Source: Eledone cirrhosa (Eukaryota). From it: DNA of 64,000 bases. The stretch spans positions 14,756,001 to 14,820,000 of the forward strand of contig OZ024764.1 of NCBI GenBank assembly GCA_964016885.1, written 5' to 3'. This document shows, one piece after another, positions 31,001 to 32,636 of this stretch. Each line of letters opens with the position of its first letter. The first letter of the stretch is position 1. Position numbers and translations under genes: made by a program. Under the pieces are notes generated by a model that saw nothing but the letters and a program-made list of their open reading frames with translations, had not been told where the DNA came from and searched no databases.

Positions 31001-32636
31001 CTCCGAGGCCCTGGGAAGCAAATCCACTGTCTTGGTTCACTCCATCACTATACACCTTAGGAACATTTCCACCGATCCCAGATGCTGCTGCATTATTCTG
31101 TAAAGGTTCATCGATTTTCAGGGTCTTCGGTCTCTCCTCGATGTTTGCTGCCACGCTTCTTTTGACTCTGTTTTTGGGGCTCAAAGATGGGCCCTTTTCC
31201 AGATACATGACAGGCCCACTTTCCACCTTCGTTATTAAGCGCTGTGGATCCCTTTTTTCTGCACACGTACTAGAAGTAGTATTACCAGCGTCGATTTCTA
31301 CATCAGTTTTTGCCCTTACATCCTGTTCAGCTCCCAATGCTTCCACAGCAGCAGTGGATTTCACATCAGTGTTTATATCCCCGTCAGTGGCATTGTTTTC
31401 CACACCACCACCAATAGGCTCGTTGAGCACACTCGCCATAGGTCCAATTTCCATACTAAGATCTGGTTCAGTTTCCACACCTACGTCAATTTTATTTTCC
31501 GCAATCTTTCTCTTCTTCGACTTCTTCTCCTCCTTTTCTTCTTTTTCCGTCTTTCCAGCAATTTCCTTCGGTTCCGTTTTCACGCCCTCGTCTAATTTCT
31601 CGTCCTTATGTGCTGAGCTTTGTCCAGTATTTGCGTGTGTTTCCTCCGTCTTTTTTCCATCGCTTTCCTTTCCATCTTCCTCGTGCTGTTTCTGTTTCTT
31701 ATCATCATCATTGCCGCCATCATCGTCACTTTTCTTATCTCCCTTTGCTACAGACCCAACGACATCTTTCTCGAGTTTCTCTTCAGCGAGATCATCAGGG
31801 TCGTCAGTTCCGACTTTGACATCTCTTGTCCTCGTTTTCATCTTTTCCTTGCCACCATCGTCGTCTGCGACATCAGTGTCCTCATCGTCAGCGATGTTTG
31901 TTGTCGATGAAAGGCTTTCGCCATTTTCCTGCGTCTCCAGAAGAAACGGCAAGCTCAAAGCCTTGCAAATCCGATTGCACGTATGCATCCTAAAAAAACT
32001 CTTTATACCGGAGCGCCCTCTGTCAGTTGAACCCCATTGTTTGTCCGATGAATGAATAATCGGATTCGTCAGTAAAAACTCATTCTCGTGTGCAATGCCC
32101 TGCAGCCCACAGATGAGAGTGTCACGAGTCTCACAAGCTGTAAAATGACTAAAAGCCTGCAGGATGTAAGCATTCTCGGCACCTTTCAACGGACTGTTAC
32201 GATAGAACTTTCGGAAGCTGTGTCGAAGATATGGTTCGACAACCACACAGTCATCGGTATCAATAGCTTTGATGTCGGAACACCAATAAAGGCAGCCCGT
32301 ACAGGTAGAAACGGTGTCGAGGTGGGCCAAAATCGGGATCAAGAACTCGACTTTATACTGACCCCTCAATTTATTATTGAATTTCTCGGCAAGATCATTG
32401 GCGGCACTTGCTTTAGCCACATACTGGCTCCAATCAGATGGCTCGGCAACAAATTTGCGGAACATCTTGACAGCGCAGTATTCCCCCGATCTGGGGCCAT
32501 CCCCATTCAACCGACCCTTGAATACATACATGCTGCCACCTTCTTTGACCGGCTTGTATTCAAATTCAGCCCAGTACCTGTGATTAGTCTGGTCATTTGT
32601 AGAGAGCAATGTCCGGTTTGAAAACTGTACAGCCAT
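19011..32636 (-). CDS. Giant single-ORF protein (4541 aa): N-terminal alpha-kinase-like (predicted pseudokinase) domain plus very long low-complexity/tandem-repeat tail
   Basis: 13.6 kb without a stop in otherwise microsatellite-ridden DNA; GC-richer than flanks; ATG in aaaATGG context; aa ~20-230 carry alpha-kinase motifs (CAVK, VEPYL..F.KF, QAFSHFT, xLQG, LTxP.IH, G.TD.G..GI..FF..HxCN.IC..L). Exon structure beyond this ORF cannot be established. Confidence 0.88.
22010..22280 (-). repeat. Coding 36-39-bp repeat (GT[G/C]GPFRDQQ..), about 6-7 copies
   Basis: Repeated ggtccctaaatggtccac. Confidence 0.9.
22495..23190 (-). repeat. Coding 48-bp/16-aa repeat (QYSPGVQY[T/K/V]PPGVPSD), about 14 copies
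   Basis: Repeated gaacaccagggctgtattgatcagaaggtacccc at 48-bp spacing. Confidence 0.95.
23790..25800 (-). repeat. Coding 60-bp/20-aa repeat ([22 protein letters not shown]), roughly 30+ near-identical copies
   Basis: The 60-nt lines from 24061 to 25200 are almost identical; all indels preserve frame. Confidence 0.95.
25830..27100 (-). repeat. Coding polyQ-YEVP repeat ([18 protein letters not shown], ~42-48 bp units)
   Basis: About 15 YEVP motifs in the translation; DNA units share ggtacctcat. Confidence 0.9.
27780..28110 (-). repeat. Coding 60-bp/20-aa repeat ([24 protein letters not shown]), about 5 copies
   Basis: Recurring caagagttaagtccctt at 60-bp spacing; translation shows repeated RDLTL. 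Confidence 0.9.
31947..32579 (-). other. Alpha-kinase (eEF2K/MHCK/TRPM7 family) domain, catalytically degenerate
   Basis: Zn ligands H164, H218, C220, C224 and Lys57 retained; canonical DLQG reads GLQG (G177, 32106-32108) and canonical LTDP reads LTNP (N191, 32064-32066). Confidence 0.88.

Follow-up and report, generated by a model that had tools for sequence, protein, structure and literature searches.

Pseudokinases are common in expanded kinase families, and for that reason the pseudokinase concept itself is not new. Among the alpha-kinases, residue roles have been described, in the numbering of Dictyostelium MHCK-A, for R592, K645, E713, K722, Q758 and D756 (PMC9258954), with further assignments in PMC2827801; D766 is reported to be essential, mutants of D663 to show about 1% of kinase activity, and R592 to be important, albeit non-essential (PMC4876393). 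The only alpha-pseudokinase that we found in print is vertebrate ALPK3, which has been proposed as the first of its kind, with a scaffold role; it keeps the predicted catalytic Asp, D1774, while four other cleft residues are changed (PMC9698156). The original prediction for the present locus invoked ALPK3 as a reported pseudokinase, and such a report does exist, but the status of the protein is disputed, kinase activity having been reported by another group (PMC11358020). Given this case, pseudokinase calls that are made from sequence are open to dispute. VwkA, a name encountered below, denotes a protein with an N-terminal vWA domain and a C-terminal kinase (PMC2827801), and one study of mussel larvae reports a transcript named 'VwkA' in their shell field and reads it as that of a kinase (PMC9283884).

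The locus analyzed here lies in a 64,000-nucleotide stretch of the genome of the octopod Eledone cirrhosa (hereafter, the window), and encodes a protein in which an N-terminal domain of the alpha-kinase fold is followed by an acidic repeat tail of about 4,300 residues (Table 1). A Pfam scan of all 4,541 residues returned PF02816 as the sole family (residues 32-224, E = 1.3e-29, 104 bits against a cut-off of 21.3, profile positions 2-185 of 185) and no second domain, and a whole-protein scan found no 19-residue segment with a mean hydropathy above 1.4. The AlphaFold2 model of the domain, built with an 89-row alignment, has a pLDDT of 93.7 and a pTM of 0.89, and superimposes on eEF2K, an Entamoeba alpha-kinase and MHCK-A with Z of 19-21 and an rmsd of about 2.5 Å over about 200 residues. 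In the fold search, the top 23 rows were all alpha-kinases (Z 14.9-20.7), the following row having a Z of 8.5. The domain carries the His/His/Cys/Cys zinc site of alpha-kinases, at which metal binding is predicted. A helical insert contains, in addition, a Cys-x-x-Cys motif (residues 113-120; 32277-32300, minus strand) that is present in all four cephalopod Asp-less domains, whereas the Asp-intact paralogues have only its first Cys; this is a candidate metal or lipid-attachment site.

Table 1. Features of the alpha-kinase-fold gene, in window coordinates
Feature	Position	Strand	Basis or remark
Uninterrupted reading frame, 4,541 codons, 13.6 kb	19011..32636	-	Start Met common to homologues
Alpha-kinase domain, residues 1-232	31941..32636	-	Pfam PF02816, model and fold match
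M36, replaces P-loop Arg (MHCK-A R592)	32529..32531	-	Alignment, codon
Kept nucleotide-contact residues K57 (K645), E134 (E713), K143 (K722), Q179 (Q758)	32100..32468	-	Alignment
Y72, replaces alphaC Asp (MHCK-A D663)	32421..32423	-	Alignment; coordinate by arithmetic from the frame
G177 = GGG, replaces putative catalytic base (MHCK-A D756 / eEF2K D274)	32106..32108	-	Alignment, codon
N191 = AAT, replaces essential Asp (MHCK-A D766 / eEF2K D284)	32064..32066	-	Alignment, codon
Zinc ligands H164, H218, C220, C224 and N/D-loop residue D205 (MHCK-A N781)	31965..32147	-	Alignment, codon read-out
Tail motif 1, LQTPP block, about residues 704-750	30387..30527	-	Common to all three orthologues
Tail motif 2, IPxIDD/E type, residue 1773	27303..27320	-	One per protein, four proteins
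Tandem array, coding, 60-bp unit x 33.7, poly-Gln with Tyr/Ser/Thr	23830..25813	-	
Tandem array, coding, 48-bp unit x 13.9, Pro/Tyr/Gln-rich	22507..23175	-	
Tail motif 3, EI..FRIN type, residue 4391	19446..19466	-	One per protein, four proteins

The remainder of the window consists, by eye, of repeats and retroelement-like fragments, with 46% masked as tandem repeat; short frames at 40239-40544, 42944-43312, 51332-51742, 53253-53459 and 54483-55174 resemble, on inspection, LINE-type reverse transcriptase ends and a Helitron/PIF1-like helicase fragment. No second alpha-kinase gene, and hence no Asp-intact paralogue, was found within the 64 kb. The best library match of the domain is the product of Octopus sinensis LOC115225996 (row P0007), with 92% identity over the domain.

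Residue equivalences to MHCK-A and eEF2K were taken from sequence alignments, in which GLQG of the octopus domain falls on DIQG of the solved alpha-kinases and LTNP on (L/Y)TDP, neither motif being gapped inside. Translation and codon read-out bear out the residues named in the original prediction (G177, N191, M36, the loop KFYRN at 143-147, K57, and H164/H218/C220/C224), and its call for a structural comparison is answered by the alignment of G177 and N191 with the D756 and D766 columns and by the alpha-kinase fold of the model. Of the features of an active alpha-kinase, the domain thus has no equivalents of D756, D766, R592 and D663, and retains those of K645, E713, K722 and Q758. The Tyr at the D663 position is a third lost acidic residue, which the prediction had not mentioned. 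Two other changes that it had listed need qualification: the P-loop Met is real but common only to O. sinensis, the other two orthologues having Lys, and the loop sequence KFYRN was read correctly but departs less from the usual one than the prediction suggested, K722 and N726 having retained counterparts in K143 and N147. Also kept are the equivalents of F720, the N/D-loop residue (D205) and all four zinc ligands. The G177 and N191 columns are occupied by Ala in two deposited MHCK-A chains, PDB 4zs4 ('Inactive ... D756A') and 3lmi ('Inactive ... D766A'), both with ATP.

RNA recoding is common in coleoid cephalopods, and a 5' G neighbour is the least favoured context for ADAR. Given the abundance of recoding and the intact Lys, Glu, Gln and zinc residues, the domain could conceivably have kept weak kinase activity, through a non-canonical residue or through A-to-I recoding that restores an Asp at position 191; ALPK3, after all, has been reported active by one group (PMC11358020). 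We nevertheless consider this very improbable. The GGG codon at 177 is not editable to Asp, as the prediction had recognized, so that editing cannot rescue the site, and D756A alone is deposited as inactive; D663 is lost as well. The suggestion that AAT at 191 might be edited to GAT found no support: the editable A sits in ACG|AAT, that is, directly after a G, and 201 nt around the codon fold no better than shuffled sequences (z = 0.3), with no hairpin.

The substitutions are shared by the orthologues. P0007 from O. sinensis, P0004 from the cuttlefish Acanthosepion pharaonis and P0005 all have Gly and Asn at the two positions along with the Tyr at 72. The conservation of this pair in the window protein and 3 of 3 orthologues, for which the prediction had asked, argues against a chance substitution. 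Across the four proteins, 125 of 230 domain positions are invariant, and in 100-residue blocks the identity to P0007 is 91% and 96% over residues 1-200, compared to mostly 20-60% in the tail. Such conservation, far above that of the tail, supports purifying selection on the domain fold. A conserved loss of catalytic residues within a selected domain, the mark of a pseudokinase, is accordingly what these sequences display. Of the earlier claim that the fold is selected without catalysis, the first half is supported; the lack of catalysis is a prediction from sequence. A scan of metagenomes for orthologue DNA yielded 73 pattern matches, of which 0 were confirmed. In a separate observation, the last 41 residues (19014-19136, minus strand) are 97% identical to those of O. 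sinensis and have no matching block in the cuttlefish-type orthologues.

Extremely improbable, in our estimate, is that the gene is a decaying duplicate or an assembly artefact. The Asp-less domain does diverge faster (58-59% identity between the octopod and cuttlefish-type orthologues) than the one pair of intact paralogues compared (71%), as decay would have it. However, a 13.6-kb frame has stayed open through repeats, the domain is 91-96% identical to that of O. sinensis, and the same substitutions recur in cuttlefish. Read contigs from two runs of one sample match positions 30500-32661 with 0 mismatches, the domain included (one contig has a 1-base gap at 31013, outside the domain), which disfavours an assembly error; the two runs are possibly the window's own source and, as such, are not independent biological support. 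Two further runs, one of them RAD-seq, gave no coverage of the domain.

The loss of the aspartates is not peculiar to this gene. A library search with the domain retrieved 2,774 proteins at E <= 0.001, and in the best 150, a sample biased toward the neighbourhood of the query, 76 have both Asp, 57 neither and 14 one, 3 truncated rows having been dropped; 71 proteins thus lack one or both. With the query and three matches from other searches added, the counts become 77, 60 and 14. A quick IQ-TREE of 153 rows, from which the trait columns had been removed, yielded a clade of 80 rows (SH-aLRT 96) comprising 60 proteins with neither Asp, 13 with one and 7 intact. Careful trees built from smaller, hand-picked sets (61 and 44 rows) recovered the same clade at 100/99; the trees do not include ALPK3. 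Of 25 in-clade clusters sampled, 14 carry an organism name, and two further members are also named; the 16 named members all come from molluscs, namely octopus, cuttlefish, scallops, freshwater mussels, abalone, Aplysia, Elysia, Biomphalaria, Bulinus, Nucella and a chiton. The out-of-clade clusters with names (3 of 5 sampled) come from a brachiopod, an acoel and clams, and atlas searches returned generic alpha-kinase clusters only. The octopus domain is therefore placed by the trees as one member of a large, mollusc-rich clade and is no one-off.

Within this clade, the substitutions are fixed inside clusters: four scallops, for instance, share Gly/Ile, and the abalone set has Gly/Thr. Where both Asp are missing (60 rows), position 57 is Lys or Arg in 56 of 56 filled cases, Glu stands at 134 in 98%, and H164 and both Cys are present in 100%. 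In many relatives, ATP binding is nevertheless doubtful because the equivalents of K722 and N726 are lost. Several clade members are named vwkA-like, eEF2K-like or alpha-protein kinase 1-like by NCBI, the others being 'uncharacterized' or 'hypothetical'. Molluscs thus likely carry a large family of inactive alpha-pseudokinases that are often labelled as ordinary kinases in databases. Two further observations concern the wider set. P0143, outside the clade, has Gly at the catalytic-base position and keeps the second Asp, and a Met-Gly start, a possible N-myristoylation signal, occurs in 34 of the 77 intact proteins and in 21 of the 73 that are Asp-deficient, and is absent from the cephalopod genes.

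The Asp state changes at least 5 times on the 153-row tree, a count that is blind to loss versus reversion. A single origin for all Asp-deficient rows was rejected (p-AU 1.4e-9; 29 vs 15 rows), the test group having been chosen on residue state once earlier trees were known. The cephalopod Asp-less gene groups with Asp-intact cephalopod paralogues (P0008, P0181 and P0082), with support of 86/96 in the 61-row tree, 96/89 in the 44-row tree and 97 in the 153-row tree, but the alternative placement, with other mollusc rows, was not rejected (p-AU 0.07). The intact paralogue is probably the sister gene, and a separate Asp loss in cephalopods is the favoured reading of the trees. The independent origin that the original prediction held to be probable is supported with respect to ALPK3, which keeps D1774; the implied lone origin does not, given the mollusc clade and its repeated changes.

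The intact paralogues (O. sinensis LOC115225995 and O. bimaculoides LOC106874992) are 39-41% identical to the Asp-less domain and differ from it in that they keep both Asp, have Lys at the R592 and Glu at the D663 position, and consist of 200-336 residues, with no tail. In the intact in-clade rows P0008, P0181, P0031, P0066 and P0085, the P-loop Arg is likewise replaced by Lys and the alphaC Asp by Glu. These two changes may predate the Asp losses, and the 'intact' kinases could be atypical in their own right. In O. sinensis, the intact P0082 (LOC115225995) and the Asp-less P0007 (LOC115225996) have consecutive numbers and each lies on a contig sized 17,062,404; their tandem position is inferred from the numbers and the contig. 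Different subfamilies also appear to lie on one scaffold in four scallops and in 2 of 4 abalones, as judged by equal scaffold size, which suggests gene clusters.

An intact sister that is probably also a neighbour, and the apparent sharing of scaffolds by subfamilies in scallops and abalones, would fit a scheme in which the Asp-less domain is dedicated to regulating its intact tandem paralogue, by activating it, inhibiting it or trapping its substrate, and in which that paralogue acts on the tail's Ser/Thr/Tyr repeats as its substrate. Activation by dimer formation has been described for the TRPM6/7 alpha-kinase domains (PMC2827801). Such regulation seems unlikely to us, however. Adjacency by itself is weak evidence, and the clade has 73 Asp-less rows against 7 intact ones, a ratio of about 10 to 1 for which one-to-one regulation can hardly account. 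The predicted complex of the Asp-less domain with the O. bimaculoides paralogue had a score of 0.24 (mark 0.34; without alignments).

SelO- and SidJ-type kinase-like folds are precedents for repurposed chemistry, and some features of the clade might be taken to indicate that the fold now serves another reaction or senses a nucleotide or metal. K57, E134, D205 and H195 persist in almost every one of the 60 rows that lack both Asp, His at 195 being found in 96% of these rows versus 63% of the intact ones, and the substitutions at 177 converge on Gly or Asn in 95%. We regard this possibility as decidedly improbable. The two carboxylates close to the phosphates have been lost, position 191 is free to vary (N, T, G, C, I, S and others), and intact kinases conserve D205 just as well (98%). 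Moreover, Asp to Gly and Asp to Asn are single transitions, so the convergence is expected even with no new function. A broader proposal, to which we assign a low probability, is that the alpha-kinase fold in molluscs has become a sizeable, repeatedly de-catalysed, clustered family with a new biochemical job, as a nucleotide or ligand sensor or as a different enzyme relying on the retained Lys, Glu, His and Asp residues, possibly in the shell field or skeleton, to which the cephalopod member would have added a giant repeat tail.

The tail is acidic, with Gln, Ser, Gly and Pro abundant in it. Of 35 repeat rows, the 31 that lie inside the frame all have a period that is a multiple of three, and the other 4 represent an upstream TA run. 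Outside three short motifs, octopod and cuttlefish-type tails are barely conserved. The motifs occur once each, in identical order, in the window protein and the three orthologues. Motif 1 passed an unbiased 10-residue scan, its score of 37 exceeding the best of 40 shuffles (34), and has profile E values of 6e-5 and 4e-7; motifs 2 and 3 did not rank in that scan and, as patterns chosen post hoc, have 0-2 matches per 1,000 shuffles. The repeats themselves turn over: the Gln-rich units (22500-27130, minus strand) differ from those of O. sinensis in length and sequence, and the tails of the cuttlefish-type orthologues consist of unrelated Glu/Thr-rich repeats, acidity being kept.

Taken together, these results are best explained, with a probability of roughly 0.6, by a dead pseudokinase domain to which we ascribe, by inference, the function of a binding, scaffold or regulatory module, placed ahead of a very long tail that is likely disordered. 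Under this model, tandem duplication of an Asp-intact paralogue would have given rise to the octopod gene, and the zinc site would keep the domain folded in the absence of the phosphotransfer residues. ATP might still be held through K57, E134, K143 and Q179, as it is by the Ala mutants of MHCK-A, with no transfer of phosphate. Partners would bind the conserved surface of the domain and the three short tail motifs. To the long tail, presumed to be cytoplasmic and disordered, the domain could lend a docking or allosteric function.

A caution follows for transcriptome studies of molluscs, in which proteins labelled 'vwkA-like kinase' may often be non-enzymes. The more than 70 divergent Asp-deficient representatives in the clade span gastropods, bivalves, cephalopods and a chiton, and the natural domains that lack both Asp, from octopus to cuttlefish, would be clean test cases for a fold without catalysis, with the intact sister as the control. 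Among the matches listed in our literature search, outside of which most subscription journals lie, there was no description of mollusc alpha-pseudokinases. What appears to be new is the loss of both Asp in the alpha-kinase fold and the number of proteins in the set.

Among known systems, the closest sequence family consists of the stand-alone vwkA-like, MHCK-like and eEF2K-like kinases of invertebrates (these being automatic NCBI names), with which the octopus protein shares an N-terminal kinase domain. The stand-alone proteins have a median length of about 300 residues, whereas the cephalopod members carry tails of 1,300-4,300 residues, and both Asp are kept in 72 of the 73 rows lying beyond the mollusc clade, whereas 73 of the 80 within it lack at least one. 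The protein is not VwkA: its kinase domain occupies the N-terminus, and because Pfam detects no vWA domain, the vwkA name is a best-hit label only. The domain resembles that of MHCK-A in structure (Z 19-20, rmsd 2.4-2.6 Å over 196-199 residues) and in the conservation of K645, E713, K722, Q758 and the zinc ligands, and looks like the D756A and D766A mutants combined. Unlike MHCK-A, to which it is about 26% identical, it has no WD40 or coiled-coil domain, and R592 and D663 are also replaced. With vertebrate ALPK3 it has in common the alpha-kinase fold, an intact zinc site, a long protein and a proposed non-catalytic scaffold role. It is not, however, an ALPK3 orthologue, having Gly where ALPK3 keeps D1774; the octopus protein has lost both Asp, carries its kinase-fold domain at the N-terminus with no other domain detected by Pfam, and belongs to a mollusc clade. 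Judged by these residues, the octopus route to an alpha-pseudokinase is different from that of ALPK3 and more clear-cut.
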